From Yuukianura sp. NJ FZ-2021 (lineage: Eukaryota), in assembly GCA_046563655.1 (NCBI GenBank), contig CM102286.1, forward strand, positions 620,001-684,000: DNA of 64,000 bases, read 5' to 3'. Below, piece by piece: positions 10,005 through 64,000 of the stretch. The notes under the pieces are model-generated. The model was not told the origin of the DNA, made no database searches, and was given only the letters and a program-made list of their open reading frames with translations. Made by a program: the position numbers and the translations under genes. Within the stretch, counting starts at the first letter, position 1. Each line of letters begins with the position of its first letter.

Positions 10005-11394
<1,390 letters not shown>

Positions 11395-35700: not shown

Positions 35701-36423
35701 AGACTCACTCCTCAACACACAACTGCTCTCCCTGGATACAGGTGCCATGGAAACAGTTGCCATGGAGACAGCAGTTCCCATGGCGACAACTCCAGTCCAG
35801 CATCTCTCCTCAGACAGGCAGCACCACTGCCAGCACCAGACTGGAAGAACTTCAACTCCGTTCCACCGCTCACTTCAGCCGCTCAAGAAAAGAGCGGGAG
35901 TGGAAATGGATTGCCGAGTTCTGGGAGCCACAATTCATACGTCGGCACTGGGCCCTTGTGGACCGAAGTAACCAATGATGGGGCCGAGAAGAGCCGAGTG
36001 CCTCCGAGTGGACTGCCGAAGTGTGGACAGACCCTTAAGGGCTCCGATGTGTCTCCCTATGCCTATGCCCATGTTGGGCTCCAGTTGCCTCCTGCCCTCC
36101 CGAAGTGTGGTGCTCCTCCTCTGATCGAATGGTACTCGCAGTTTCCATGCCAAAGTGGCAACAGCCCCTTGACAACGAGTAGCTACGTTGCCACTAGCAA
36201 CGACAAAATCCACATCTACGCCAACAACCTCCAAAGCAAATTCAGTCCTCTACTCAACAGAAACAAAAATGGAAGGAATTCGGGGGACTTCGAAACTAAA
36301 AATTTGGAAAATCCAAATTCCTCAACAGGAAAATCAACTACAGGGAGTTTAGTACTTGTTGATGGATTTGAGTGTAGACGGAATTTGACAAATGAGGAAA
36401 ATGTGGTGGAACGATTTTTGTAA
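20720..36423 (+). CDS. Ryk/Derailed-like WIF-domain receptor without kinase domain, copy 2, complete (exons 20720-20873, 28037-28164, 30649-30755, 34343-34476, 35462-36423; 494 aa)
   Basis: Signal-peptide exon ending NFNFYLDRREFQKLH/G joins the WIF exons in phase. Internal exon sizes (128, 107, 134 nt) equal those of copy 1. TM helix and cytoplasmic tail end in VVERFL and a stop. Confidence 0.88.
21095..22261 (-). CDS. Secreted MACPF-like protein (exons 22261-22188, 22119-21715, 21650-21095; 344 aa), nested antisense in intron 1 of the WIF gene
   Basis: Signal peptide MRWSIFLFCHFVGSCLS, PLFQFTC...IPDQL segment, and DFERAFNALP...FFEKYGTGYY...FYG resembling the MACPF signature. Splice phases are consistent. 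Confidence 0.68.
29749..29842. repeat. Short degenerate tandem repeat (about 27-30 bp, 3-4 copies)
   Basis: Recurring GGGAGT(T/A)ACTAT...GAAAAA..GTG units. Confidence 0.6.
30798..32936 (-). CDS. BTB-BACK domain protein (BTBD1/2/3/6-like, no PHR domain seen), 5 exons, nested antisense in intron 3 of the WIF gene
   Basis: BTB motifs DVTFLVG...IKAHQLVL...SPVFESLF and FLYT; BACK motifs ETQVFNAVLRWG..C and IRFPVM...LLTDKE. Exons splice in frame. Confidence 0.88.
30983..31290. mobile_element. Degenerate CAAGG-ended MITE in BTB gene intron 4
   Basis: The left 220 bp is clearly similar to 33273-33500 and the right end to about 33985-34031. No TSD recognisable. Confidence 0.65.
31537..31791. mobile_element. 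Possible MITE with TAGG termini and internal TTATAGAA repeats in BTB gene intron 3
   Basis: TAGGGAGTTTGCATTT versus reverse-complement TAGGAAGTTTCCATTT, with inverted arrays of TTATAGAA/TTCTATAA. No TSD found. Confidence 0.45.
32391..32624. mobile_element. CAAGG-ended MITE with 8-bp TSD (P-element-like or hAT-like)
   Basis: CAAGGTT...AACCTTG termini flanked by GAATATAG and GAATACAG. Confidence 0.75.
33190..33219. repeat. Perfect 30-bp palindrome upstream of the BTB gene
   Basis: TTGATATCTAATCTA followed directly by TAGATTAGATATCAA. Confidence 0.9.
33273..34031. mobile_element. CAAGG-ended non-autonomous DNA transposon (759 bp) with an internal tandem duplication of about 180 bp
   Basis: Imperfect TIRs of about 45 bp, a perfect 8-bp TSD GAGCCTTG (33265-33272 and 34032-34039), and near-identical repeats at 33594-33771 and 33772-33951. 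Confidence 0.85.
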
Positions 36424-36505: not shown

Positions 36506-38515
36506 TCAAGTTATAAGGGGTTTAAAAACTTGAACTCTAGTTACAGTAGATTTAAAATAAGAACACTCAAGTAAAAACACAAAAATTCCGAAAACGGCAA
36601 ACATCAAACCAACCAAAATCAAATAAAATACGTAAGTTTGACTCTGTCGTACTAATTGTCCTGCACTTCTATTTTGACCACTGTTTTTCTGGTGACCTTT
36701 GACCCGACCTTGAGTACCTTGATTAAGTTGACCTTGAGGATGAGGAATGTGAATGAAAAAACCGAATTGGGCGACCCACTGTAACCGGTTGTAGTAAATG
36801 CCGAGCCTGTCAAAACTTGTGTCTAACATTTGCCAAGCGTTGGTATCTTGCATGAAACGATCTTTTCCAAAATAAAATTCAGGGCCGTCAGGGTAGATGG
36901 CGCTATTCAGGGCCGTCAATCGGCCGGAAAGTGCGCTCAATTCAGTCCTGTTACCAACAAACATGGTTTTGTCGCACTTTTGAAGTTCTTGTTCCATTGT
37001 ATGGTCGGGGCTGTAGTTGACCGAAATACTGTTGAACATTTTTTCATACCTGGAACTTGTGAAGTTTATGTTCGGTTGACCCAGGTCATTGTACATTGGT
37101 AGTTGTGGTGGTTTCAAACGTTTTGCATGCGGTTTCAATGCAAGAAGAAATTGACTACTGTCATGGTGGTCTGGCTTGTTTCTCATAAAAACGTGTTGGT
37201 AAACAGCTTCAATCGGTTGTTGTGTATAAGCCAATACTTTAACAATGTCTTTTCTTATCAAATTTGAAATTGGCGCCAAAATGGTATAACCACTTGTAAC
37301 CCCCTCTTCGATTGTTTGAACATAATTTGGAGAGACGGCGGTGGGAAAAAATGTTTGGAACATTAGTGAACCAGTAAAAATTCTACCACAAAAATTTACC
37401 GTAATGCATGCAATGACTACAAAATATTTACTCCAATTTTTATTAAATTTTGATTTAAACAAGAAAAAGATAAAAACAGTAACTAAAACCAAAATTTGAA
37501 ACAACATGAACAAAATGTTTGCAACAAATTTGAAATTTGGCAATTTGAAATTTTCGCCACTTGTAGCACATGTAACGAAATTAAAATATTGACCATCAGA
37601 GTACCATACAGTATTTGCTTTAGTATTTGAACCCAAAGTGAATTTAGTTCCAAGCCGTTGGGTTACAATTCCATAAGACGGTTCTGTTTTCAATTTTTTT
37701 AAAACAAAGAAATTTGAAATTTTTTCAAAAATGGTTTTTGATGTATTCGATACCGTAATGCCCAATAGTAGCGGTGTGTACGGGAACTCCTTTGGGAAAG
37801 TATTAGAATTTGGTACTGCTTTTTTCAAACTATCGTATACGACTACGCCACCTATCAGATGTTCTCCGGTAACGAACGAGTATTTGGTGAAATTATTACT
37901 AGGACAAAACGTCCACGTAAGTCTGCAATGTCCAAGAACAATTGCACGGTAAATTTCGTCCAGTAGTTGCCGTCTTACCACAAGAACATTGCCGGTAACG
38001 GACCCACTAACGACAGTATTGCAATATTTCGTACCAGTTTTGACGGTAAGTGCCAAACTTGCATTGACAAATTGCAAAATATAAAAAGCAGAAATTGGAT
38101 TAGATGTAATGAGCTGATTAGGCTGAAATGTGCTTTCGGAATCTTTTAAAATAATAAAATAAGTTGTACGCAGATTGCATAACATTTTGCAGTCAGATAA
38201 CCATTTGAAATCATGATAATAACGTGGGTTCAAAATTAAAATTAGTCCGCAATTGTGTGGAAACTGTGAAGTCCGTGTAAGTTTTTTAGTAGCGCGAGAA
38301 TATGTTTTTGTAGATTGAAGTAATAGCTGCATAGTTGGAACATTGTTGGGCGTAAAAGAGTCGGAATACAGTGTGTATCGGATTACAATGTTTCGACATT
38401 TTTCAAAGTCGGTAATATCGAGTAAGTCGAGAGGCAGTAGAGATTCGGTTTTACCGAAACCGTTAACGGCAATTTGTATATGAAAAATAAAAAATAGGAA
38501 TTGGGTCAAGGTCAT
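36506..38515 (-). CDS. Divergent ionotropic-receptor-like membrane protein (intronless, about 669 aa)
   Basis: Signal-like N-terminus, FNFVTC motif before M1, and three TM segments with IR-like spacing, the last ending IFVFLLE. The family call is an inference from topology. Confidence 0.65.
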   Translation of the reverse strand: MTLTQFLFFIFHIQIAVNGFGKTESLLPLDLLDITDFEKCRNIVIRYTLYSDSFTPNNVPTMQLLLQSTKTYSRATKKLTRTSQFPHNCGLILILNPRYYHDFKWLSDCKMLCNLRTTYFIILKDSESTFQPNQLITSNPISAFYILQFVNASLALTVKTGTKYCNTVVSGSVTGNVLVVRRQLLDEIYRAIVLGHCRLTWTFCPSNNFTKYSFVTGEHLIGGVVVYDSLKKAVPNSNTFPKEFPYTPLLLGITVSNTSKTIFEKISNFFVLKKLKTEPSYGIVTQRLGTKFTLGSNTKANTVWYSDGQYFNFVTCATSGENFKLPNFKFVANILFMLFQILVLVTVFIFFLFKSKFNKNWSKYFVVIACITVNFCGRIFTGSLMFQTFFPTAVSPNYVQTIEEGVTSGYTILAPISNLIRKDIVKVLAYTQQPIEAVYQHVFMRNKPDHHDSSQFLLALKPHAKRLKPPQLPMYNDLGQPNINFTSSRYEKMFNSISVNYSPDHTMEQELQKCDKTMFVGNRTELSALSGRLTALNSAIYPDGPEFYFGKDRFMQDTNAWQMLDTSFDRLGIYYNRLQWVAQFGFFIHIPHPQGQLNQGTQGRVKGHQKNSGQNRSAGQLVRQSQTYVFYLILVGLMFAVFGIFVFLLECSYFKSTVTRVQVFKPLIT

Positions 38516-39591
38516 TGTCGAAATTTTACTTAGCAAGTTTTCTCATTCACTTGCGTTAGCTTTGTTCCAACTGTTCAGCCTAAACTTGAACATCGGACAG
38601 CTAGTTCTAAAAGTGTTTGTTTGAACACGATTGTTCCCGGGAGATTTTAAATCTCATGTGAATTATCGTCTTTTTTCGAAGACTGCCTTTTAAATTCAAA
38701 ATTTTGTTATTCTCACGGGACTTTTAAAGCCCAGTTCAGCTTTTCCGGGACTAAACTATTCTTTTGCGTTTTGCCTGTCGCATGTATATTTATCTTACTA
38801 CATTTTATAAAGTTTAGCTTAGAAACATGCAAAAATGAACGCATGCGTAGACTTTTGAATATCAATCAATCAACATAAAAAAAAAGTTTTCTTTCACTTA
38901 AACATTTGGAGAAGAGAAAGTAGACCAGAGGAATGAGAAATGAAATTTCGAGAAAAATGACAAGAATAGACGCCGTAAAAAATTCCGGCGTATATTTATA
39001 CGCTCAGAATCAAAGATTCCGCTTTCGGGTTTGATCGGAGAAAGGTTAGCATGGTGAAGGTGAAATGAAATTACGACGGAGAAAGCATAGAAATTTTTTT
39101 CTGTTTGGATTTGGACAGTTTGTGCCAAACTAACTTTTAAACTCCTACAAAATAAAATACATAAGAAACAAGAATAAAAGAACACTGAAAATGGTTATTA
39201 AACGGTCCTTGGTGTACCAATTCTGGTTTCATAACTTCAAATATACGTTAATTGAATTAAATTTAATATTTAATTACTTAAATTATATAGTAATGTGAAA
39301 TTTGAATGTTGTGCTGAACCGATTTCTGCAAGGTTCCAAAAAAAGTGGTGGTGGGCAGAGACTGTAAAATTTCAACTTTCTCCGGCGCAGTGAGTCATTC
39401 ATTCAAAGTCAAACAGACAGCGTGAAAACCGTCAGAACATCCCTGGAATTTTCACCCACATCGGCTTTTATGTTATCTGCGAAAGTTCAGTCACTTTTTT
39501 AACAATGAATCAAGGTCAATCATCAATCAAATTTAGGTTTAACTGGCTTTGAATCAAGCTCAACTTGGAAATTGTGTAAACTACTCGGCGT

Positions 39592-45795: not shown

Positions 45796-47563
45796 TCCAT
45801 CGATCGCTGCTATTCCATTATAAAAACTAGTCACTTATGGTGAGAAATGAGCAGCAGTTATAAGATTCGTTTTGAAAATTCATTACTGAAAACTTAACTT
45901 TTTTTTAATGTTTTCATATTCTTTTTCTTTCACAGTAATTCCTGGACGCTGAAAAGAAGAACGAATTTGGAAAACTAATTTATAGTCTGTTTATTTTGTT
46001 GCATCAGCACAGCATGAAGGTAAAGTTTTTCTTTTTATAATTTTTGAGTAAAAAATTTCTGTTAGTATTTTAATCCACCATTTTTTGTTTCAGTTCCAGT
46101 GCTGATGACGAAAAGTTGGAAATCTCCTTTGGCCACTCCAGTTTGACGCCAGTTATTAATTTAATTTGTTCGATTTGAATTTGAATATCAGTTCGTCAGG
46201 TCAATTCGCGTCCTAAGCCTTCAGTATTATAATTTAACCCGGACATTTAACAGTGTGAAGGTGTTATTATGTTAACTAACTTAAGAATAGCATGTTAACA
46301 TTTCAATTTGGAAAAGGAAAAGGAGGCCTTGACTAATTCGATCTCCGTTAAACTTGTAGAGAATTTAGGTTGGATTTTTCAAAAATTCTTCTGCCGGCTC
46401 AGAAAAAGTATTTATATAAACGAAGGAGCTTCATTCTTCTAACACAGCAGCTATTTAGTATTTAATTAAACTAACAATTAAGTTTAATTATTCTAGAAAT
46501 TAAGTTCTGCTTAAACTCTACACCTAGTCTTCTCTGCTGCATTTCATAATTGGAGGAGTGGAAACTTTTTCTCCATTTGAAGAATTGGACTGATTTTCCT
46601 GCCATAATTTTTTCAATTTCTAAGTCTAAACTTTAACATGAAAAAATTATTCCTAACAAACCAGTAACTTTAACTATCGATGAACCCAGTGACTCTGGCA
46701 GGAGCAAAATGAAAAAACGAAATCAGTTGTAACTTTATTTAACAATTTGGAAACGTCAAAATAAAATTTTGGAAATTCACTGTATCACTCAATAGCACTT
46801 TAGTTCTAGTGGTTTCATTTCAATCTAAGTCTGAGGTCAAATGCGGAACTTATAGTGTGGTCGAACATCGTGTAGTTTTTACCTTTCGCAAATTAAAACA
46901 TCAGCACACGAGGCGAGTGTTGACCAATAAGCGTCGACTTTATGCTGAATTGTGCCTGGTACTTTTTAATTTGAGGTTAGTGGCTAACCTATGATTAATT
47001 ACAAATTTAATTAACTTGTAAGATTAATAACCAGGTTAGCACCGATCACCCGCTCCTGTTGGTCGTGCTTTAAAAAATGTTTCACCCGAATTTCGGAAAA
47101 AAAAATGCCCAAATGCTAAAATTTTGAATTAAAATTCCTAAAGCTGAAATTTTGATTATGTTAGAGTTAGAGTTTCGTCTGTACTTTGACTGAATTTGCA
47201 AACGATGTTTTTGACACTGGGGTCAGGAAACATTTTTTTTAAGTTATCTGCCATTTGTATTCAATTTCTCACCTTTGCCCTGGTATTAATTTGTTTGATT
47301 TTGAAAAGAATTTTGAAAAGTGTTTAATACGGTAGGAATTGAAGTCCGAGAAATTTGTGATACGTGAGGTTTGGTTATGTGAAGTTTGGAAATTATCTTA
47401 CTACGTATGTGGTGTAACTAACTGTGGTTAAAATTAACTGCTTTGGCAATTGACTTGCAGTGATTAAGTTTTTGCTTAAATAGGAATGCTGGATGCTGTT
47501 TGACCTCCAACCTGCTTTTGTGACTTGACCTTTCACAAAACAATTTCAAACCAACCAATCACG

Positions 47564-47994
47564 ATGCGCACTGCTATCCTCTTCGCTTTTGCTCTCTGCG
47601 TCGTTGTGGCCAGTGCCGGCCCAATTGAAAAGCGAGACGAACTTGATGTCTTCAAGGGACGACCAGGTACTTCCCTCTTTTCAAAATTTTGAAACTTTAT
47701 CGTGTCAAAATTAACTAAATTTTGAAACCAAAATTAAAATTTGAGAAGAAATGTTCATAAATTGTTGTTAAATTTCAGAGGTCCGCAACGGACATGCTCC
47801 AGCCAAGGACTACATTGTCATTGAAGTCTTGAAACCAATTGTTCAGTAAGTTTGGAATTTCAAAATTTTGGATTTTCTTAAAACTTTGGAAATTTTTAAA
47901 ACTGCGGTTTACAATTTGTAGCTACTATGCTGCTGAGGCCCGTGTTGAAGCCGCCGCTGGTGTCAATGCCTCTGAGGAAGCTCCGGAAGCCTAA
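47564..47994 (+). CDS. Secreted propeptide family gene 1 (exons 47564-47666, 47779-47845, 47922-47994; 80 aa)
   Basis: Translates to MRTAILFAFALCVVVASAGPIEKR-DELDVFKGRPEVRNGHAPAKDYIVIEVLKPIVHYYAAEARVEAAAGVNASEEAPEA with canonical splice sites. Confidence 0.88.
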
Positions 47995-48512
47995 ACGTCT
48001 TAATTTTAAACCACCCATTTAAAATTTAACATCCGATCAAAATATGAAATAAATATCCGAAATTCAGAGTTTTGCAAAAATAAATCTTCCTTTCTCTTCA
48101 TTCTCTTTGGTTTCACTTAATAATTTGGAATCGCTAGGACTTTTACTAAAATTGGTTTTAATTTAACTGCGTCGCACTAAAATTTGTAGACAATAAAAAA
48201 CGATAGAAAACGATAAAAATTAGTGAAGCTGTGGTTAATTTCCAAAGTTACTTTGATTTCAGCAGTTTCTAATACAATTTTGTCAAAATAAAATGTAGCA
48301 TGGACTATTTTAATTAAGTCTTTGCCGTCTGTGCAGAATCTCGGCAAGATATGAATTGAGGAAGTTAATTTAAAACCACAATTAAACAAAATTAATTAAT
48401 TGAATTGGTAAATTAAAAGGTACGTAAAGGAGAACATTCAGTGTCCAGGGATTATTGCTTTCCTTAACCAACCTACGTGACTTTGCCGCCAAATTCAAAT
48501 TGAAGAGTCGCC

Positions 48513-48905
48513 ATGCGTGTTGCCATCCTTGTTGCTCTTGCGCTCTGCATTTTTGCAGTTTCTGCCAATCCCGTGGCTCACTTCGACAAACGTGATGAAC
48601 TGGACGCCTTCAAGGGACGACCAGGTAAGATTTGAAATTTGAAAAACTTTTAAAAAAAAATCAAAATTTAAGAAGATGTTACATTTTGCTGTTAAATTTC
48701 AGAGGTCCGAAACGGACATGCTCCAGCCAAGGACTACATTGTCATCGAAGTCTTGAAACCAATTGTTCAGTGAGTGGAGATTTCGCTATTGAAAAATTGG
48801 GTTTTTTGAAATTCTGAAATTTCAATTTTACTTTGTAGCTACTACGCTGCTGAAGCCCATGTTGAGACTGTTGGGGTTGCCGCTTCTGAGGAGAAATCGG
48901 AATAA
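48513..48905 (+). CDS. Secreted propeptide family gene 2 (exons 48513-48624, 48703-48769, 48839-48905)
   Basis: MRVAILVALALCIFAVSANPVAHFDKR-DELDAFKGRPEVRNGHAPAKDYIVIEVLKPIVHYYAAEAHVETVGVAASEEKSE. Confidence 0.88.
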
Positions 48906-49638
48906 AAGTTAAAAGCCATCATCAAACCCTAACTTAACAAGCATCTTATGTTTTTAAACTATTTAAATTGCGAAAGTGTGGAATTAAAATCTTCCGTTTC
49001 ACTCTCTCTATTCTTTTATTCTGTATTTGAAATTCTCTCTTTGAAATTTGCTAATTTGTAAGAGTTCCGTAATCATAACTGGAGACCGTGCATGTAAGAC
49101 AGACTTTGTCCGGGGTAAACTTTTCCTCAGAAAACTCAGAATTTTCGCACTCATGTTTCGGTTGATGTAAGGCGAAGTTGCATTTATTTTTTTACCTTAT
49201 GTTGGAATTAAAAAAGATCTACCGGGTTTGCTCAAAATTACGACACCTCAAAAAAAATCTTCAACCAATGGGTCGGCGGTTTCGAAATTTAAAATAAAAT
49301 CAAAACCGCCAAAACCGATTAAAAAAGTTTGAGTAATTCTAAATGCTTCCGTGTGGCTTACAGGTTTTGGAAATTTGCAACCATGAACGAAATTGTGGCT
49401 TTGGTATCATCGGTATGAGGTGGAGGTGAACAGATTTGTTTTTCAAAATGGAACTTGATTGAATTTTGAAAACCAAATTCAAAATGAAACTTAATTGAAT
49501 TTTTAAAACCAAATTACCGCTATTTGCGATTATCCAATTACCGGTTGACTTAAATAAGAACGTCGCCCATGTTAGTTCAAACATTTCTAAAAAGTCTCTT
49601 AACCTGTCTCATTTTGCCCCAATTTGAAACCAATCACC

Positions 49639-50114
49639 ATGCGTGTTGCCATCCTCGTTGCCCTCTGCGTCGTCGCAGCCACCGCCAACCCAGTTGCTCA
49701 GCCCAACCATGGGTTCGAGTCTCCAGGCTTCAACCCCGGGGCAAGCAACGGTTACGAGACTCCAGGCTTCAATCCTAATGCTAAACGAGATGAACTTGAT
49801 GTCTTCAAGGGACGACCAGGTAAAATCCAAATTTCAAATTTTGAAACAAAAAATCAAAATTTGAGAAGAAATGTTAATAATTTGTTGTTAAATTTCAGAG
49901 GTCCGCAACGGACATGCTCCAGCCAAGGACTACATTGTCATTGAAGTCTTGAAACCAATTGTTCAGTAAGTTTGGAATTTCAAAATTTTGGATTTTCTTA
50001 AAACTTTGGAAATTTTTAAAACTGCGGTTTACAATTTGTAGCTACTATGCTGCTGAGGCCCGTGTTGAAGCCGCCGCTGGTGTCAATGCCTCTGAGGAAG
50101 CTCCGGAAGCCTAA
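49639..50114 (+). CDS. Secreted propeptide family gene 3 (exons 49639-49819, 49899-49965, 50042-50114)
   Basis: Signal peptide, two 13-aa repeats (NHGFESPGFNPGA, SNGYETPGFNPNA), KR, then the conserved core with the gene-1-type tail. Confidence 0.88.
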
Positions 50115-50632
50115 ACGTCTTAATTTTAAACCACCCATTTAAAATTTAACATCCGATCAAAATATGAAATAAATATCCGAAATTCAGAGTTTTGCAAAAA
50201 TAAATCTTCCTTTCTCTTCATTCTCTTTGGTTTCACTTAATAATTTGGAATCGCTAGGACTTTTACTAAAATTGGTTTTAATTTAACTGCGTCGCACTAA
50301 AATTTGTAGACAATAAAAAACGATAGAAAACGATAAAAATGAGTGAAGCTGTGGTTAATTTCCAAAGTTACTTTGATTTCAGCAGTTTCTAATACAATTT
50401 TGTCAAAATAAAATGTAGCATGGACTATTTTAATTAAGTCTTTGCCGTCTGTGCAGAATCTCGGCAAGATATGAATTGAGGAAGTTAATTTAAAACCACA
50501 ATTAAACAAAATTAATTAATTGAATTGGTAAATTAAAAGGTACGTAAAGGAGAACATTCAGTGTCCAGGGACTATTGCTTTCTTTAACCAACCTACGTGA
50601 CTTTGCCACCAAATTCAAATTGAAGAGTCGCC

Positions 50633-51025
50633 ATGCGTGTTGCCATCCTTGTTGCTCTTGCGCTCTGCATTTTTGCAGTTTCTGCCAATCCCGTGGCTCG
50701 CTTCGACAAACGTGATGAACTGGACGCCTTCAAGGGACGCCCAGGTAAGATTTGAAATTTGAAAAACTTTTAAAAAAAAATCAAAATTTAAGAAGATGTT
50801 ACATTTTGCTGTTAAATTTCAGAGGTCCGTAATGGACATGCTCCAGCCAAGGACTACATTGTCATCGAAGTCTTGAAACCAATTGTTCAGTAAGTGGAGA
50901 TTTCGCTATTGAAAAATTGGGTTTTTTGAAATTCTGAAATTTCAATTTTACTTTGTAGCTACTACGCTGCTGAAGCCCATGTTGAGACTGTTGGAGTTGC
51001 CGCTTCTGAGGAGAAATCGGAATAA
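50633..51025 (+). CDS. Secreted propeptide family gene 4 (near-copy of gene 2)
   Basis: Same three-exon structure; ARFDKR instead of AHFDKR. Confidence 0.88.
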
Positions 51026-51758
51026 AAGTTAAAAGCCATCATCAAACCCTAACTTAACAAGCATCTTATGTTTTTAAACTATTTAAATTGCGAAAGTGTG
51101 GAATTAAAATCTTCCGTTTCACTCTCTCTATTCTTTTATTCTGTATTTGAAATTCTCTCTTTGAAATTTGCTAATTTGTAAGAGTTCCGTAATCATAACT
51201 GGAGACCGTGCATGTAAGACAGACTTTGTCCGGGGTAAACTTTTCCTCAGAAAACTCAGAATTTTCGCACTCATGTTTCGGTTGATGTAAGGCGAAGTAG
51301 CATTTATTTTTTTACCTTATGTTGGAATTAAAAAAGATCTACCGGGTTTGCTCAAAATTACGACACCTCAAAAAAAATCTTCAACCAATGGGTCGGCGGT
51401 TTCGAAATTTAAAATAAAATCAAAACCGCCAAAACCGATTAAAAAAGTTTGAGTAATTCTAAATGCTTCCGTGTGGCTTACAGGTTTTGGAAATTTGGAA
51501 CCATGAACGAAATTGTGGCTTTGGTATCATCCGTATGAGGTGGAGGTGAACAGATTTGTTTTTCAAAATGGAACTTGATTGAATTTTGAAAACCAAATTC
51601 AAAATGAAACTTAATTGAATTTTTAAAACCAAATTACCGCTATTTGCGATTATCCAATTACCGGTTGACTTAAATAAGAACGTCGCCCATGTTAGTTCAA
51701 ACATTTCTAAAAAGTCTCTTAACCTGTCTCATTTTGCCCCAATTTGAAACCAATCACC

Positions 51759-52234
51759 ATGCGTGTTGCCATCCTCGTTGCCCTCTGCGTCGTCGCAGCC
51801 ACCGCCAACCCAGTTGCTCAGCCAAGCCATGGGTTCGAGTCTCCAGGCTTCAACCCCGGGGCAAGTAACGGTTACGAGACTCCAGGCTTCAATCCTAATG
51901 CTAAACGAGATGAACTTGATGTCTTCAAGGGACGACCAGGTAAAATCCAAATTTCAAATTTTGAAACAAAAAATCAAAATTTGAGAAGAAATGTTAATAA
52001 TTTGTTGTTAAATTTCAGAGGTCCGCAACGGACATGCTCCAGCCAAGGACTACATTGTCATTGAAGTCTTGAAACCAATTGTTCAGTAAGTTTGGAATTT
52101 CAAAATTTTGGATTTTCTTAAAACTTTGGAAATTTTTAAAACTGCGGTTTACAATTTGTAGCTACTATGCTGCTGAGGCCCGTGTTGAAGCCGCCGCTGG
52201 TGTCAATGCCTCTGAGGAAGCTCCGGAAGCCTAA
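51759..52234 (+). CDS. Secreted propeptide family gene 5 (near-copy of gene 3)
   Basis: Same structure; QPSHG instead of QPNHG. Confidence 0.88.
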
Positions 52235-52751
52235 ACGTCTTAATTTTAAACCACCCATTTAAAATTTAACATCCGATCAAAATATGAAATAAATATCCGA
52301 AATTCAGAGTTTTGCAAAAATAAATCTTCCTTTCTCTTCATTCTCTTTGGTTTCACTTAATAATTTGGAATCGCTAGGACTTTTACTAAAATTGGTTTTA
52401 ATTTAACTGCGTCGCACTAAAATTTGTAGACAATAAAAAACGATAGAAAACGATAAAAATTAGTGAAGCTGTGGTTAATTTCAAAGTTACTTTGATTTCA
52501 GCAGTTTCTAATACAATTTTGTCAAAATAAAATGTAGCATGGACTATTTTAATTAAGTCTTTGCCGTCTGTGCAGAATCTCGGCAAGATATGAATTGAGG
52601 AAGTTAATTTAAAACCACAATTAAACAAAATTAATTAATTGAATTGGTAAATTAAAAGGTACGTAAAGGAGAACATTCAGTGTCCAGGGATTATTGCTTT
52701 CCTTAACCAACCTACGTGACTTTGCCGCCAAATTCAAATTGAAGAGTCGCC

Positions 52752-53119
52752 ATGCGTGTTGCCATCCTTGTTGCTCTTGCGCTCTGCATTTTTGCAGTTT
52801 CTGCCAATCCCGTGGCTCGCTTCGACAAACGTGATGAACTGGACGCCTTCAAGGGACGCCCAGGTAAGATTTGAAATTTGAAAAACTTTTAAAAAAAAAT
52901 CAAAATTTAAGAAGATGTTACATTTTGCTGTTAAATTTCAGAGGTCCGCAACGGACATGCTCCAGCCAAGGACTACATTGTCATCGAAGTCTTGAAACCA
53001 ATTGTTCAGTAAGTTTCGAATCTCAAAATTTTTCACATTTTGATTCTCTTTCAAAAACTGAATTTTTATCTTCCTTTTCTAGCTACTATGCTGCCGAAGC
53101 TCATGTTGTCACCGAATAA
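52752..53119 (+). CDS. Secreted propeptide family gene 6 (gene-2-type 5' half, short unique last exon)
   Basis: Exons 1-2 as in genes 2 and 4; last exon 53083-53119 gives (H)YYAAEAHVVTE and a stop. Confidence 0.85.
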
Positions 53120-53652
53120 ATAAATCCTCAATTCGAACGACGCTAATTCAACAATTTTCAAAATTTCCACTTTTTCTTCGTTTTCTGAATTATGAAAATA
53201 AAATTATTTGTCGTTTAATAAAAACACAAAAACTCACGTCTGAAAAGCAATATTGTCTAAAACTTATTTCATTAATGAATACTTAAAATAGCACAACATA
53301 CAAAAAAAGTTATGGTGTTGGAGGTCAAAGTCCAAAACAATCCCGGTGTATTTGAAAATTTAAATTTTTAATTAAGTAATTCTAATCTTACCGCAACAAA
53401 TTAAGTGAAATGGATTTTGATGGAATTAATGAGGATACTAATGTGAAAACTTGAAAGTTACACAACATTTTTTTTTAATTTTTTGAAAAAGTTGATGTTT
53501 GACCAAAAGTTGTAACATCAAGGTGAACCTACATAAAATTGCATTCACATAAATGCAAAGTGCTTGACAGATTTCTGCATCATTTAAGTGCCAGTTGCAC
53601 AACAAGTTGGACGCAAAACGTCTCCCGGGTAAAAACCGAATTTTAAGTCATC

Positions 53653-54133
53653 ATGCGTGTTTTTATTGCTTTGACGATTTGTGTCGTTGGCACAAACGCT
53701 CTGCCTGCCGTAAACTTCTTGAACAGAGATGAATTGGATGTGTTCAAAGGACGACCAGGTGAATATTGAAATAGTCTAATTAAGCTCATCATTGAAGTTA
53801 ATTGGAACCAGATTAAGTTAAAATAATCATCAACTGAAATTAAATCACTCATGAATTTTGTCACTTGTTAAAATTTTTCAGAGGTACAAAATGGGCATGC
53901 TCCTGCCAAGGACTTCATTGTGAGTGAAATTCTGAAACCAGTCGTCCAGTAAGCTCAATTTCAAAATTTCTGTGCAAAATAAATTTTTGCATTTAAGTTA
54001 ATTAGTTTTGTGTTTAATTCTCAGCTACTATGCGGCTGAAGCGCGTACTAATGTTGTGACACCCGCCTTAGCCGGCAGACAGAAAGTGCCTCATTTCGTG
54101 CCGGAACCGGCCCAAGTCGAACCAAAAACTTGA
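53653..54133 (+). CDS. Secreted propeptide family gene 7, divergent (exons 53653-53758, 53882-53948, 54025-54133; extends to 54188 if a 1-nt insertion is removed)
   Basis: MRVFIALTICVVGTNALPAVNFLNR-DELDVFKGRPEVQNGHAPAKDFIVSEILKPVVHYYAAEART..., with the same intron phases and many synonymous changes. Confidence 0.85.
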
Positions 54134-54773
54134 AGCCGAACCAGAACCTGAAGCCGAACATGCCGAAGCTGAAAAAGCAGAAGAGTAACTTCAACACACA
54201 AATTAAAATCTGAGTTTTTAATATTGTTCTTAGTTTCAAATCTTGAACATGTTTTCTTATTCAATTTTCATGTAAACTGAGCATCCCTAAAAACAACTTC
54301 CTTTGGTTTTAAAAATCTAAATTATAACAAAACCGTTCTCAAAATAATTCTAAACCATTAATTCCAAAGTTATGGTGAAGGTAAAAACTTAGCAACGTGC
54401 GACCCATTTGCAATCAACAATTAATTGGTTGAGGTTTAGATTAACGGGGTGAAAATGTCGGTTTGCAACTTGGAATAGTAATCATAATCAATAAATTTAC
54501 AGCCGCAACTTTTACTACTCCTCCAGTTGCGGTTTTGTCTGTTGAAGCCTTTGGCAAAAAAACTTCCGCAATTGATAACGTCAATTGCTAAATGTGATAC
54601 CACTACAGAAATTGTGCAACGTATTCCAAAAATTTACAATAAACGCCTTTTATATGTTCAACTTTTGAGTTTTCCCGCAAATAAACAGAAATATTTAGAA
54701 ATTTAACTGATTACCTCCTATTTTGGTTTGGAAGATGTTGAGATTTGAGTTGAAGTTGATGGTTGCGTTGAAT

Positions 54774-56382
54774 TCAAATTTCGAATGCCGGGAATTTGGG
54801 ATGCGGGTTACATGCGAAATCGGCCAGCATGTACACGGCTCCTGCTTGACCTTCGAAGAGCGACAGCGGACGGTCAGGGGGATACTCGCAGTGTTTTCCA
54901 TAGTCAAAACACCAACGGGCGAAGATGTTGGCTCTTTGCAAATAAGTTTCGTCCTTTGTGTGTTCGTAGAATGCTCTTAAAGCATAAGCATTTCCAGAAA
55001 CACCGTGACAGATACTGTAACCTTTCTTGAGCAGACCACGGCGCCAAATGTCTTCGGCACAAGCAGTGGCTCCTTCCTTGTACTTTCCATCTCCAAACAC
55101 CTTATAGATTAATTCAAATCAATCGTCAATGACAACGAAATTAAGTTAAAAGTAGTTTAAGTTACCTGGTGGGCGGCAATGAAAGTGTAGATGGCCCCTG
55201 GAGCTCCATGGCAGAAATGAATGAGTCGATCGTCGTTTGACTCCAGTGATGAAGGTAGATTGCCTGAAGAGAAGCACAGTGTCAGCAGCCAGTCAATTGT
55301 CTTCTGTACCCATGAAACGTCGTCCTCGTTCATCCATTGTTTGGCCTAATTTAAAACCAACTAATTACTTCAAACTCATGTTAAATTAATGAAAATTAAT
55401 CAACTTGTAAAAGAATGTAGGTGATCCCGGCAATTCCGTGGGCAGCACCCAGGTAGCATTTGCGGTGCCATTCGTAGTACAGGTAATCCTGTCCAGCAAG
55501 TTTTCCTTGATCAATCAACACACGAACAATCTGTAATAGTAGAACAAGATCAACTAATTAGGTTCTACGAACATATTCGACATATAGAGGTATCTCACTT
55601 TTGTAAGTAGTGATCCATCGATGATTCCAGGAATTTCTCTGTTGAGAAGAAGCAGGGAGTACAGGTATCCTGCCCTTCCATACAAATACTCGTTGGCCAT
55701 ATTTGGATCTCTTGTGTCCAGTGCAACATTGCCCAATTCCACGAGCCTGCAATAATTCCAGTTTTAAAGTTTATGAACATGAGGCCTACGCGATAGGTTA
55801 CGTCGATAACTTACCGTTGCAGTAAATCTTGACGTTGTTTGTGGTTGTCCATCTTATTGGAAATGAGAACTCCAATTGCCAACGTTCCAGCATCTCCGTC
55901 TAGAAAAGATATTCCCTTTTTATGCAAGTGCTTCAAGTTTCTTTGGAGGAGATCATTTGCTTTCTGAAAACATTTGAATTAATAATCAAAATGACACTTT
56001 TACGTAAAAACTTTTTCACTTAACCATAACAAACACTAAAATAAGATAATATTTTTCCATACTTTGAGAAAATTCGGTCCGAATTCCAGTGAGTGAAGTT
56101 GGTAGTACAGAAGGGCGATTCCCATAGAGCCGGTGTAAACGGAAGGATCCGATCGCTGATCTGAGCGTAGTTTAATCTCCAAATCCTCCAGCAGCGAAAT
56201 TGCATGGTCTTTGATTTCGTTTTTAAATGACTCATGGTTGTCAATCGTCTAAAATCCAGAGACAAGCATTAATTGACTTTAGTTATAACTAATACTAACC
56301 AAAAAATGCAAAACTCAATTCGCCAATGTTTACTTACAGATTGTTCTTGTCCAATATACGGATTTTTGTGGTACCGACTCAT
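54774..56382 (-). CDS. LanC-like protein (LANCL1/2 type), multi-exon
   Basis: Motifs VYTGSMG, EYLYGRAGYL, YLGAAHG, GNLPSS, HFCHGAPG, WRRGLLKKGYSICHG and PDRPLSLFEG, which include the Cys/His zinc ligands. Confidence 0.93.
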
Positions 56383-57025: not shown

Positions 57026-57932
57026 TCAGTAGTCTTGACTTTGACTATGGGAAGTTGAAGATTGGGAGTAATCATCAATGTCCATTGCCGTGGGTGACCT
57101 GGATGAAGTGGAAGGCGTAGTATCCTGTGATTCATTTTGCGAATCAGTGGATTGTGAAGAAGCTGCTTGCGATTCTTCCAGCATCGTTTGAGAAGTTGCA
57201 TATGCGTTATTCAGATCCTGAAAACAAGCGAATAAAGAACATTGATTAGATTAGAAGATTCGATAGCGAATTGTGACAAATGAACAACATTCACCCTAGT
57301 TAGACGAAACATTTGATCCATTGCGTGTGGAAGGAAGGGGCGGACCGACGACATTTCCATCTGAGTCAAATTGTTTACTTTAGCATGACACCCACCGGAT
57401 TCGACGAACTCAGCAATTGACTTTTTGAACTTGGACGTTCGTATATCCCAAATGTCCTGTTCCAAAAAGATACAATTTAGTACATTGATGATTTGATATT
57501 CACAATCACAATCATTGAACTCACTTTGAGCAAAGTTCTCAGTTCATCGGTATTTGGTATCTCAGCGGAACAAATCTCAAGTAGAATCTTGCCTAAGACC
57601 ATGTAATGTTCAGATGGCATTGGAGTAAATCCAACCAGCTTCTCTTCATGTTCCTCATCATCGTCTTGTTCTGACCTCTTTTCTTTCTCCAGTTCGGCTT
57701 CCTTTACTCTTTGTAAAGTACCCACGTCCAACCAATCCGGAACGAGTATCTTGCACTTTGATCTCTGTCGAAGATTAATTGCTAACCAAACTGGAACTTG
57801 GATTGGCAGTCCGGAACGAAACGGTCCAACGGATCCACTGAGTAAAAACAATTCCGGTAAATTAAAATTCGGAACTATTCGGATCTTCTCATTCTCGGCG
57901 AGGAATTCCAGTTCACATGGAGTATTAGACAT
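57026..57932 (-). CDS. GINS2: GINS complex subunit Psf2 (exons 57932-57525, 57456-57295, 57217-57026)
   Basis: Motifs EFLAE...IVPNF, GPF..GLP..VPVWLAINLRQR.KC, DIWDIR.SK and HAK..NLT.ME...RPFL. Confidence 0.95.
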
Positions 57933-58580
57933 AGCTTCTTAGTCCCAATTTCTCCAGTAACTACCGATTCCCTTATACTAAACGTTGGACATACGTTGCT
58001 TCTCGAAGTAGCTGCGTTGCGAATGCGATGCAATATCTATACAAAATTTCAAAAAAAAATATATATTAGATTTGCATATTTCCAAGCTTGTTCATAAAAG
58101 AACTGTTATTAGAGCGTACCTGTTATTCAAAAAGTAAGGAATTGCTGTAGTCTTGTATCATGGGCGAGATTAAAATTTTAATTAATTAAATACAACAGCA
58201 AGAGCGACTTTACTTTTACAGATAAGGATGAAATTCGGAAAAAAAAAGTCTTTTGTCTTTTCCATGCAATTTCAATTTTGTTGTTGTCTCTTTGTTTATC
58301 ATTTTCAAAATCTTCCTTTCCGCGCAAAATTATTTCAGAAAATGTGAACCGGTTTTAATTTTTTCAATTTTTAAACAAGAATAGTACCTTTGAAATTATA
58401 AAAATGCTGGAATAAAATGTTTAGTTAAATGCTGGCTACAATGGAATGTTTGTACTGAAATACTGGAATGTGATAGGTACTTCTTAAAAGTTCAACTAAA
58501 CTGACGGTAAAGATAAAAATAGTATATACAAGTTATTTCGAAGTGAATGTTTAGATCACGTGTCAGTTTTAGTTAGTTAA

Positions 58581-61500
58581 TTACTTCTTCTTATGCGAAT
58601 ACTTATGTTTTCGAGTTGGTTTCTTACCGGAATCTGAACCTGAATCAGTATCCGACGAAAAGGAAACCGTTTTACCCGGGCTTTTACGTGGAGAAGTCTG
58701 AGGAGAGGGAGTAATGGCTGGAGGAAGTTTAAAATCCGGTGGTCGCTGTCATACCTGTGGCTCACCCATTTCCTTATCTCACTTCTTATATAAGAAGTGT
58801 GGAAGGTTTTTGAGAAAAAAGTTGCAAAACACCACAACGTACCCAAGCCCTGTTTTAATTGAGTTGACATTCTTTTAACATTAATTAATTATTATTACAT
58901 TATTAAATGTTTATATTAATAAATGCACAAAAAATTATAAAAGGAGTAAAATATATATTAAAAAAAAACTATTCCGTTGGAAATCGTTTGGAGCCTTTAC
59001 AGATAATTGAATAATTTCTTATGACAAAACAACACTGGCAAAACCTAATACACATCTTTTAAACGTTTTGCAATTTACAAAATACGATAGTTCTAATTTC
59101 TTATGTACATTATTTCCAATTCAGTTGTTAATACATTAAATGAATATGAAGTAAAGTGAAACTGGAATATACAGTTGTGGTATAGTTAGAGTATAAATGA
59201 AAATGGTGAGGCGACAGATCTTACAATTACAAATCTTACACTATCAGAGATGTAAAAAATATTTATATTTATTATTTTCTGTTTAGGTTTTAGGTTGAAT
59301 ATATTTTTCAGGTCTGTTTTTGTAAGAGTTGTAACTGTAAGATTTGTAACTGTAAGATTTGTGATTGTAAGATCTGTCGCCTCACCATTTTCATTTATAC
59401 TCAAACTATACCACAACTGTATATTCCAGTTTCACTTTACTTCATATTCATTTAATGTATTAACAACTGAATTGGAAATAATGTACATAAGAAATTAGAA
59501 CTATCGTATTTTGTAAATTGCAAAACGTTTAAAAGATGTGTATTAGGTTTTGCCAGTGTTGTTTTGTCATAAGAAATTATTCAATTATCTGTAAAGGCTC
59601 CAAACGATTTCCAACGGAATAGTTTTTTTTAATATATATTTTACTCCTTTTATAATTTTTTGTGCATTTATTAATATAAACATTTAATAATGTAATAATA
59701 ATTAATTAATGTTAAAAGAATGTCAACTCAATTAAAACATAGGGCTTGGGTACGTTGTGGTGTTTTGCAACTTTTTTCTCAAAAACCCTCCACACTTCTT
59801 ATATAAGAAGTGAGATAAGGAAATGGGTGAGCCACAGGTATGGTCGCTGTGTACTGGAAACTTTTAATTCCAGCATCAGAGAATGTCTTTGAACAACTTC
59901 TGGATACGTGGCAACAAAGTCCGAGTCGAAGGGATACTTGAACTCCCATCCTGTCATGGGTATGACAACAGCTACTCCAGACAGTATTTCTGTCACTTCT
60001 TCATTTGGGAGTTTCGTCAGGCAGCACATTTCTGGTCGCTCCACGATCCGCTTCTGATTCAAGTGACTTAGCTAACAAATCACAACAAATCAAAGTTTCT
60101 GAGAATGATAATCCAACGTTTTTAAGATTCTTACAATAACGTCTCTCCCTCGTCGCATTTCAATTGCCCCAATTCCATGAGCATTTGAAGTAAAACTGGC
60201 TGGATACAAAACGTCGCTCTTGACAACCCAGCACCCCTGGACGACCAGTGCTACTGTTTGAAGGGAATGCAAAAGTGAGTCGTCATCGATATCTCCACCA
60301 AGCCTTTGGTGCACAACTTCAACAAGATCTGAGTATCGAATTACTTGAGCTGATCGACAAAAAATATTGAATTTAGTGCTTTTCAAAGTAAAATGGTAGT
60401 AAGATTTGTATAGTGCACTGACTTGAGAACATTATGTTTCGAAGTTGCTCTTCGAGGGGAAGATCTTTCATCTCTGAGATTGGAACTTTCTGGACATTGG
60501 ACGACTTCGCTTGTGAATTAGTTGAGATTCCAGGCTTAACTTCAACTACTTTTGGGAAAAGTAGCTCCAAGTAGTCTTTGGCAGACAGGCAGTAGAATGG
60601 GGTTTCACTTTCAAATGAATTCTGAGAAAGTTTGGGCAGTAGATCCTGCTGAGAATGCTTAAGATTTATCCAGGGATACTCTTGATGCTGGTGACGCTGG
60701 AAGCTGTAACTTCGAACATACTTGGGCTTAGGCCCGTTCTCACGCAACTGATTAAACTTGACACTAATTTTTGTGGGTTCGGAGTCAGCTTCAGGTATCA
60801 TCTTTGAGTCATCTGCATCGACATCTGAAAATCATCCATGTACTTATCCAAAGACAACAAATAATTCTTGTATTCGCCCTAACCTTTGCCATCTTTCTCT
60901 CGAATGTCTGGATGTGGAACGATATCTCGCATTTCTACAATTGATTTGATACAACTGAGATGTAACTTTCCTCCTTGAACGATGCCTATGACGTATCGTG
61001 ATGATCTGGCAGAAAGTGGAATGCCACTTGTTGCCATCACTCGTTGATGTTCCAGTGGAGTCCTTTCGTCCTCATCGCTTCAAAAGTCAAAAATCAATCG
61101 ATATGAACTGGAACAATGTCAGTGAATAAGCGAATCTTACTTTTCATGCTCAGTCGCCCGTGATCTCTCCTTATTTTCATCGTAGCGAACTTTAGTATTC
61201 ATATCCAATGTGACCTGAATCCTGTCTTGACCCGGCTTCACCTTTATCTAAACAACAATAATATGCGAATAATTTATACTAGTAGACTAGATGGGTTTTA
61301 GTAATTGTTCAATACTTTATTACTTTGATTTGAGTGACGCAGTCACTTACTTACTTCTCTGACTTCCCAATCGTCAAGTGACACCTTTTGTGGCATCAAC
61401 GGATATTGGATCACATATAACTGATCGTTTAGTGCCTTAGATTGATAAACAGGAATCTAGACAATGTAGACAAATACAAAACCTATGAATTATGAAACCT

Positions 61501-61907: not shown

Positions 61908-62816
61908 TTAAGCACTTGGCTCAGTATCTGAGCAATCTGCGGAAGCCTTTTCAGTTGGCGGCCATGACTGGAGACAGTTGACACTAACTTCTGTCACTGC
62001 TGAGTAAAGCACCTCAGAAATTGTCGTTAAATATTGCGATATGTCCGAGTTCGGAAGGCGGTAAAGTAGAAACACACCGTAGCCATCTTCCATAGTTTTA
62101 GTAGCTAAGGGTAACGCCTCTTCTAACGTTGTCACCATGACATCCACTGCTCCCGGTCCAAGTTGTCTTTGCGTCAAATTAGGTACTTCAGGAACGATGA
62201 ATTTTCCATACTCTCCGTTCCAGCTATAGTCCAAGAAGTCTCCAGCATTTAAATCTTCATAAGTTAATCGAGTCATCACTGGCCCATAGTAGTACAGCGA
62301 TATAATTTTAGGTTCCGGAAGGAGTCGGCGCAGTTCCCGAACCAAGTAGACGAATGAAAACTCGTTGGCTGGTTTCGGCTTTCCGGTTTCGGTTTCTTCC
62401 GGACCATAACCTGCGTATTCGTCATCAAAATCGATTCCATCCAGACCGTAGTCGTCTACAGTCTGCGCCAGTTGACTAGCAAAGTCACGGATGGATTCAA
62501 TGGTCTGGAAGTTACAAATTCCTACGCCCTGATGATTACCGAGAATTGACAAAAGGACTTTGATGCCTTTGTCTTGTAAAGGTCGAATGTACGTCGCATG
62601 TCCGCGGAGGACTGTCGTCACTTGTGTATTGAAGTGCAGAACAGCTCGGTCGTTGACCTGGTCATAGTTGATATTGGCGGCAAAAATGATTGCAATGTCA
62701 ATCAGCTGTTTGGCAACTGGAGTCTGGAGTGTGTAGCAACCAACGTTCAAAAAGTTAGTGTCATTGACCTCCACATACATCACGGTCAACGGACACTTTT
62801 TGACTATCGGCGCCAT
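61908..62816 (-). CDS. GH18 endo-beta-N-acetylglucosaminidase, Endo H-like (302 aa, single coding exon)
   Basis: YVEVN, IFAANINYD, IRPLQDKGIKVLLSILGNHQG and catalytic YGLDGIDFDDEY match the bacterial Endo H family as I recall it. Confidence 0.92.
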   Translation of the reverse strand: MAPIVKKCPLTVMYVEVNDTNFLNVGCYTLQTPVAKQLIDIAIIFAANINYDQVNDRAVLHFNTQVTTVLRGHATYIRPLQDKGIKVLLSILGNHQGVGICNFQTIESIRDFASQLAQTVDDYGLDGIDFDDEYAGYGPEETETGKPKPANEFSFVYLVRELRRLLPEPKIISLYYYGPVMTRLTYEDLNAGDFLDYSWNGEYGKFIVPEVPNLTQRQLGPGAVDVMVTTLEEALPLATKTMEDGYGVFLLYRLPNSDISQYLTTISEVLYSAVTEVSVNCLQSWPPTEKASADCSDTEPSA

Positions 62817-63025
62817 TTTGTTATCAACCTTTCTGGAGATGATGAAATATGCCCGGTTTTTCGAATTTACCTTCAAGAATTTTAGAAAACTTTATCAAAA
62901 TTGCCTTTTTTTTTTGTTGACTTTTTCCAACATAACTTTCCCGCATTTCCAGAATTTGATTTCAACCTTAAGAAATTCGCTCAGACTTTGAGTTTTTCAC
63001 AGATTTTTATTTCAAAATTTGAAAT

Positions 63026-63930
63026 TCAAAGATTTTGACGTTTTGAAAACCCCATAAGAAAAAAATAGAACATGAGACAAACCAATCTTCCAGTTCTATA
63101 CGATTCCACATCCGGATTAAATTCGCTTACGTCAACTAACATGACCTTTGGATTCCTTCCAGCTTCGAAACAGATTTCCAGAGCCTCTTGTGCCGTTAAT
63201 CCAACAGTTCCTGGAGCAGACACTCCTGGACAATCGTTACTCGAAATGGCATCGATATCAAAACTAACAAAAACAGCATCTCCCGCATTTTTCAAAATTT
63301 TAGCAAATTGTTTCGGAATTGATGTTTCTTCGTTTCGGAGTTGAGAGAGCCACAAGACTTGACTGTTCGGTTGACCCTGGACATACTGCACATGCTCTGC
63401 ACTGCACTGGTGACCTTGAGCGGCAAATTCAATCAAGTTCCCGCCGGAAGCTTTGAATAAAGGATCTTCACAGAGTTGTCGAAATGGTGATCCGGAGTGG
63501 GCGTGGCCAGATGACGTCAGTGGTCTTACGTCAAGATGAGCATCAATGTTAATGACAGTGACACCTAGCGGCACTTTTTCTGACGTTGTTAGACTTTCCA
63601 GAAGTCCTTTGGCGTTGGGATAACTTTGATCATTTCCACCACCAATGACGAACGGTATTACTCCATTTTGAATTAATTTCGCGACCTTGGCGCGTAAAAA
63701 GTCATGAGCGATTTCCAGGTCCAAATTGCTGTCAATGTCCCCGGCATCTCCAACCTTCAATCCGGTCAAATCGGCAGAGTATTCGGCATTTACGAGCGTA
63801 CCGATTCGGTTAATCAGAGATCGAATGGTGGTCGGTCCTTTGGCTGCACCGACGCGTCCGCCGTTTCTTCTGACGCCTTCGTCATACGGAAAGCCGAGGA
63901 GTGCAACATCACAACTTTTTAAATCATTCA
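63026..63930 (-). CDS. hutG: Formimidoylglutamase (HutG-type, arginase/ureohydrolase family), 5'-partial
   Basis: Motifs GFPYDEGVRRNGGR.GA..GP, GGGNDQS, INIDAHLDVR, HSGSPFRQL, SFDIDAI, PGVSAP and SEFNP. The ORF lacks an ATG and begins at a TTTTAG splice acceptor (63932-63931), so an upstream exon is likely outside the window. Confidence 0.88.
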
Positions 63931-64000
63931 CTAAAATTCAAAAATTGAGTACAATGCTAACTGAAACGTTTTAAAAATGTTAAAATATGCAAATATTTGT

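Follow-up and report, generated by a model that had tools for sequence, protein, structure and literature searches.

A tandem array of seven genes for predicted secreted, cysteine-free peptides with a conserved core in a springtail-like arthropod

Which family of peptides is encoded by seven clustered genes in the genome of Yuukianura sp. NJ FZ-2021, and what might these peptides do? The genes lie within 64 kb of contig CM102286.1 (positions 620,001 to 684,000; this whole stretch is the window, and its numbering is used throughout). We confirmed seven intact secreted-peptide genes on the + strand of the window, all co-oriented, with ATGs at 47564, 48513, 49639, 50633, 51759, 52752 and 53653. 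As the initial annotation had proposed, each gene has three exons: all 14 introns are GT-AG (69-123 bp) with polypyrimidine acceptors, and intron 1 is in phase 1 and intron 2 in phase 2. The N-terminus of every protein is hydrophobic (Kyte-Doolittle maximum over 11 residues 2.85-3.35), and in six of the seven genes KR, with an acidic residue next to it, precedes a conserved core. Gene 7 has NR at this site, in agreement with the single R noted there before. Behind the core comes an acidic tail, which in gene 7 is out of frame as assembled. Cysteine is absent from the predicted mature peptides of all ten gene models, that is, the seven window genes and three homologous loci (L001-L003, see below). 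This supports the convertase-type precursor layout claimed earlier, with a signal peptide, a KR site and no cysteine. Judged from sequence, the array represents a real but so far undescribed family of secreted peptides, of a generally familiar type, which appears conserved beyond this genome and has a predicted function.

Gene 1 (47564..47994; exons 47564-47666, 47779-47845 and 47922-47994) encodes 80 amino acids (aa), gene 2 (48513..48905; exons 48513-48624, 48703-48769 and 48839-48905) 81 aa, and gene 3 (49639..50114; exons 49639-49819, 49899-49965 and 50042-50114) 106 aa with a long pro-segment. Gene 4 (50633..51025; exons 50633-50744, 50823-50889 and 50959-51025; 81 aa) is near-identical to gene 2, and gene 5 (51759..52234; exons 51759-51939, 52019-52085 and 52162-52234; 106 aa) is near-identical to gene 3. 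Gene 6 (52752..53119; exons 52752-52863, 52942-53008 and 53083-53119; 71 aa) is a mosaic, and gene 7 (53653..54133; exons 53653-53758, 53882-53948 and 54025-54133) is an old paralogue of 93 aa as assembled. The exon-2 pieces of all seven genes score 45.8-50.1 bits with a family profile, compared with at most 10.2 bits among the 90,585 segments of 30 shuffled windows; since the profile derives from these same seven genes, the control shows no more than that the shuffles hold nothing alike. No eighth copy was found by this profile within the 64-kb window. A TATA-like element with a putative promoter role lies ~88 bases 5' of gene 1 (47475..47483, +), with similar elements preceding genes 3 and 5 as well as homologue L003. 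Shared 6- and 7-mers in the promoters were AT-rich and unconvincing after multiple testing. The pro-segments of genes 3 and 5 (49690-49785 and 51810-51905, +) carry two copies of a Gly/Pro/Phe/Asn-rich unit, which matches no family and could come off as a separate peptide.

As near-identical genes recur along the array, how independent are its copies? The segment 47717-50984 recurs at 49836-53108 with 98.1% identity, and the array consists of two full 2.12-kb tandem units and a partial third. Unit A (47717..49835, +) comprises the 3' part of gene 1, gene 2 and the 5' part of gene 3; unit B (49836..51955, +) shows 21 differences from unit A in 2120 columns; and in the first 1056 columns of partial unit C (51956..53108, +), 8-9 positions differ from units A and B. 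Genes 3 and 5 carry a first exon of their own, but match gene 1 exactly from exon 2 through intron 2 to exon 3. Gene 6 resembles gene 4 in its 5' half and has a private intron 2 and exon 3. Whereas exon 2 is 96-100% identical among genes 1-6, intron 2 is just 58-59% identical between types. Over the 21 full codons of exon 2, five tested pairs among genes 1, 2, 4 and 6 show 1-3 synonymous differences, and the differences to gene 7 amount to 7 synonymous changes and 5 replacements. We infer that the array was recently amplified and homogenised through unequal crossing-over together with gene conversion focused on exon 2; the three tandem units, as assembled, may be real or partly an assembly artefact. 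Because recent duplication and conversion would have homogenised exon 2, the close match among genes 1-6 provides no independent support for selection. The seven copies reported initially are thus all present, but they do not count as seven independent genes.

Is the core nonetheless under selection? Between gene 7 and genes 1-6, the ratio of nonsynonymous to synonymous substitution rates (dN/dS) over the 34-codon core is 0.045-0.068 (Fisher p <= 5.6e-7), with 29 of 34 core residues kept in gene 7, which bears out the purifying selection previously suspected from this gene. Comparison of the window genes with L001-L003 gave dN/dS values of 0.06-0.18 in 20 of 21 pairs, the remaining pair being saturated. 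Across the ten gene models, 20 of the 34 core positions are invariant. A 21-residue inner core (residues 38-58 of the metagenome protein P0004) has 14 positions without any change across 12 sequences, a set that includes the six near-identical window copies of genes 1-6. Strong purifying selection on the 34-residue core is very probable on these data, and we regard precursor architecture and selection as the firm part of our analysis. The arrangement of KR or RKR followed by D or E is also found in all three loci L001-L003 and in a further protein, P0003. Homologues differ in the length of the segment that separates KR from the core, and some have insertions there, so that the selected unit is an internal motif rather than the N-terminus of the mature peptide. 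Accordingly, the near-invariant core described before stands, with 34 residues and an inner part of 21, but its start at DELD is not family-wide. Conservation of an exact sequence amid variable flanks suggests a specific binding partner.

Gene 7 also differs at its end. The initial annotation had extended the array to 54188, and an 18-bp repeat with an acidic Glu/Ala/Pro-rich tail is indeed found at 54114..54188 (+; stop at 54186-54188). However, this tail is in another frame than gene 7, which stops at 54133 as assembled. The first copy of the repeat has 19 bases, suggesting a frameshift or an assembly slip in the tail of gene 7.

Where else does the family occur? Searching metagenome contigs with an exon-2 alignment matched 232 stretches, of which 4 passed tblastn. 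L001-L003, all from one metagenome assembly, are true homologues with a signal peptide, KR or RKR, the core and an acidic tail, and they share 24-27 of 34 core residues with the window genes. All three have intron 2 at the same position and in the same phase as the window genes; intron 1 is also common to L002 and L003 and is missing from L001. Their contigs are intron-rich and have neighbours different from those in the window. L004 was dropped as a chance bacterial-like match (60% guanine plus cytosine, 55% identity, no fitting exon 1 or exon 3). L001 (2687-2788, +) and L003 (1387-1632, +) each contain a further signal-peptide exon of family type, for which the contig shows no core exon; in L003 the promoter is duplicated as well. 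These extra exons may be truncated paralogues or related peptide genes.

A profile search (A4) of proteins of 78-2000 aa returned 2 of 147 candidates. To judge from the protein alone, P0003 would be a further family gene in which both introns are read through. P0004, together with P0005, starts with a signal peptide and continues, with no pro-segment and no KR in between, into the core, which is unbroken across the intron-2 junction and followed by RKR and a further domain; its contiguous core lends independent support to the predicted intron-2 splice. The domain after RKR (residues 75-158) comprises 84 aa, is acidic and beta-rich, contains three cysteines and has no assignment in Pfam, NCBIfam, PDB or Atlas. 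The metagenome proteins P0002, P0003 and P0004/P0005 belong to the same family, and none of them carries a name. Among proteins of 40-130 aa, the open reading frame (ORF) of L001 as query retrieved itself as the sole candidate (1/1). None of 47 pattern stretches in prokaryote genomes and none of 52 in viral contigs was confirmed as a relative. Overall, the family appears to be present outside this genome, in several samples.

Does the family correspond to anything already described? Pfam, scanned exon by exon for the window genes, gave no relevant family for the exon pieces, the L001 ORF, P0003 or P0004 (E up to 0.1 or 10); the sole sub-threshold match was PepSY_2 on exon 1 of L003 (E 0.15), and no cuticular protein profile matched any exon or homologue. 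NCBIfam gave no match, PDB sequence searches nothing better than E 0.63, and PHROGs one E 0.2 match only, on the signal region of P0004. In Atlas, P0004 scored 0.78 at best, which is no more than a lead. With exon 1 of gene 3 as query, there was no candidate among proteins of 33-105 aa, and the sole phmmer match among 1.84 billion representatives was P0001, an unrelated 1359-aa repeat protein matched via the pro-segment; this phmmer query consisted of gene 3 exon 1 plus read-through and held just the first core residues, so that distant core relatives may be missed. Literature searches, with most subscription papers outside their scope, found no paper on the family motifs or on orphan springtail peptide arrays. 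The initial annotation had recognised no family, and no named match turned up in any of these databases or in the literature searched.

What kind of peptide would be released? The predicted mature peptides have 44-68 aa, a net charge of -1 to -6 and an isoelectric point of 4.8-6.3, with a core net charge of -2 to +1. None of the ten gene models has a C-terminal Gly-basic amidation signal, and the precursors have no conserved C-terminal cleavage site. An amphipathic helix had been suggested for the core: the best 11-residue stretch, which has a central Pro, reaches a helical moment of 0.53-0.56, but this is borderline against shuffles (p 0.04-0.10; 0.07-0.39 for the whole 18-mer), and Chou-Fasman values for the inner core favour beta (1.28-1.30) over helix (1.00-1.03). 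AlphaFold predicted almost no secondary structure for a 44-aa piece of L001 (predicted local distance difference test, pLDDT, 66; predicted template modelling score, pTM, 0.18), and drew the core of P0004 as a helix at pLDDT ~43 in a model with pLDDT 36 overall. Foldseek with this P0004 model gave no match at E <= 0.001, an uninformative result. A transmembrane anchor was rejected, as the core is too polar (19-residue hydropathy maximum 0.58-1.29), and so was metal binding via His-x-His, as the first His is Asn in the window genes and no such motif occurs in P0004.

How does the array compare with known secreted peptide systems? Bomanins of the Drosophila 55C cluster are described in the available text of PMC4411088 as short secreted peptides, processed at the N-terminus and encoded in a tight cluster, with a single common motif of 16 aa that includes a CXXC bend and with unconserved tails; their functions overlap and may depend on dose, and they are reported there from Drosophila only. 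Protection of flies against mycotoxins by Bomanins is stated in the accessible part of PMC9827548. As far as these texts go, the array is like the Bomanins in its clustered genes, short predicted secreted peptides, conserved motif and variable tails, and unlike them in showing no sequence similarity and no CXXC. It further differs in its three exons, its KR site and its longer hydrophobic motif, and in lacking an amidation signal; no kappaB sites were found either. Bomanin membership was rejected, since peptides without cysteine have no Bomanin motif. In springtails, the sections of PMC10051947 at hand list just 45 antimicrobial peptide (AMP) genes of five known classes in five species, and undescribed ones are suspected. 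Like collembolan diapausin, Alo, diptericin, cecropin and defensin, the array peptides are small, secreted and probably from the same animal group; however, the collembolan AMPs in this source are all cationic, with diapausin Cys-rich, whereas the array peptides are anionic and Cys-free. Six family motifs gave no match in its supplement, and these five families were rejected for lack of Pfam homology and because the mature peptides are not cationic. Hexapod neuropeptide precursors, as presented in the available portion of PMC4770511, likewise combine a signal peptide with a dibasic site, cleavage being predicted here; the array differs from them in its lack of an amidation signal, a C-terminal cleavage site and a Pfam match and in its seven copies. 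An amidated neuropeptide precursor was rejected, the Gly-basic signal being found in 0/10 models. The family motif was absent from one supplement of that paper, a weak test given its 8,023 characters, too small for 1,300 precursors. A lanthipeptide precursor was rejected as well, as there are no cysteines and a LanC-like neighbour 586 bp off matches animal LANCL1/2.

What, then, might the peptides do? The reading that we place first, and hold only tentatively, is that of a lineage-restricted secreted family acting most likely as a high-dose defence effector that binds a fixed partner. After removal of the signal peptide, a proprotein convertase would cut after KR to release the anionic peptides, whose acidic flanks would keep them soluble. 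The hydrophobic inner motif would fold on binding the fixed partner, with no charge-driven membrane lysis, and at high dose in body fluid or at the gut or another surface the peptide would, for example, bind or neutralise a microbial product or modulate a host target. The host would be a springtail-like soil arthropod, with an array organised like the clustered, tailed Bomanins of PMC4411088, so far as its text was available. We counted for this reading the parallel to Bomanins in tandem amplification, conserved motif and unconserved tails, as well as the suspicion of undescribed springtail AMPs in the part of PMC10051947 consulted. Several observations weigh against it. KR is missing in gene 7 and P0004, the Bomanin motif is absent, and the mature peptides are anionic whereas all collembolan AMPs in the text of PMC10051947 at hand are cationic. 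Strict kappaB sites were absent from 500 bp 5' of seven distinct promoters, with 0.28-1.09 expected per pattern, which is weak evidence against Toll/Imd induction; in the same promoters a loose Relish pattern occurred 18 times, compared with 20 expected. The loose Relish pattern is also quoted in the available part of bioRxiv 10.64898/2026.03.03.709459. Moreover, a structural secretion from glands or a ligand would be about as compatible with the anatomy of the precursors.

A glandular structural secretion, for cuticle or moulting fluid, glue, spermatophore stalk, egg coat or gut lining, is possible though doubtful. Here a beta-branched, hydrophobic core with Pro, Lys and acidic residues on both sides would self-assemble after the propeptide is cut or the pH drops, with copy number supplying bulk. 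The beta preference of the inner core, the acidic, Ala-rich tails and anionic charge, the lack of kappaB sites and the recent amplification all fit this explanation. However, no Pfam cuticle or other family was found for any exon or homologue, the core is non-repetitive, and, as a matter of general knowledge, its near-exact residue conservation exceeds the usual need of compositional structural proteins. A signalling ligand (hormone, cytokine or pheromone) for a host receptor seems unlikely. A signal peptide, a dibasic site and a conserved core with free flanks are the usual pattern of a ligand precursor, but the models lack both the amidation signal and a conserved C-terminal cleavage site, the spacing between KR and core is variable, and seven near-identical copies would, again from general knowledge, be unusual for a hormone.

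Would the core itself be the active part? We consider it improbable that it is a portable escort, sorting or scaffold module, with pieces cut from it as the active products, the candidate payloads being the repeated pro-segment of genes 3 and 5 and the 84-aa domain of P0004. The same core does occur with an N-terminal repeat extension in these two genes and with a C-terminal domain after RKR in P0004; yet eight of the ten gene models have no obvious payload while their core is kept under selection, and P0004 enters the comparison as a protein sequence only. A classical cationic membrane-lytic AMP is less probable again: the helical moment of the 11-residue stretch and the low-confidence AlphaFold helix could be cited for it, but the moment is borderline and neither core nor mature peptides carry the charge expected of such a peptide. 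To return to the defence effector, we also considered a bolder form of it, which we think quite unlikely although less so than escort or lysis. In this form the 21-residue motif would be a new portable binding module of soil arthropods, shared with the source of P0004 and acting as a Cys-free anionic defence effector, released alone at high dose or with convertase-cut payloads on either side.

The remainder of the window holds genes of other kinds. The LanC-like exon next to the array (54774-55118, -; Pfam PF05147, E 8.7e-27; closest PDB entries LANCL2/LANCL1) belongs to an ordinary animal gene with no link to the Cys-free peptides. Housekeeping neighbours, all on the - strand, encode GINS Psf2 (57477-57938), RPC5 (60373-60831) and an RNA-cap methyltransferase (10202-10558); the host is an animal with short introns, and Psf2 is of animal type. 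A long uninterrupted ORF of glycoside hydrolase family 18 (GH18; 61908-62891, -), whose nearest Atlas clusters (0.95) are bacterial endo-beta-N-acetylglucosaminidases, is a candidate for horizontal transfer, and is adjoined by an arginase-family ORF (63026-63937, -; 303 aa without stop, Pfam E 2.3e-43). Exons at 21095-22139 (-) match a MACPF domain (E 1.4e-5). Two ORFs ~31 kb apart (4249-5259 and 35440-36423, +) have closely similar translations, the second without a Pfam family. An uninterrupted 678-aa ORF (36506-38542, -) with a signal-like start and hydrophobic segments has no Pfam match and presumably resembles divergent chemoreceptor-like springtail genes. A 658-aa ORF (15919-17895, +), with a weak DUF4218 match alone (E 0.085), is one that we take to be a DNA-transposon protein.

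What does the array mean for the biology of these animals? Its general layout of clustered secreted prepropeptides is familiar, and at present it is another orphan among secreted families. The array also offers a clear, small-scale case of concerted evolution limited to one 67-bp exon. It provides a concrete family under selection, invisible to Pfam, in a group where homology searches found few springtail AMP genes, according to the available text of PMC10051947. As the core is short enough to be synthesised, its activity is directly testable. If the motif were indeed a portable module of defence, directed for instance at the fungal toxins or enzymes that fungus feeders encounter, it would represent an innate effector class unlike known AMP families.

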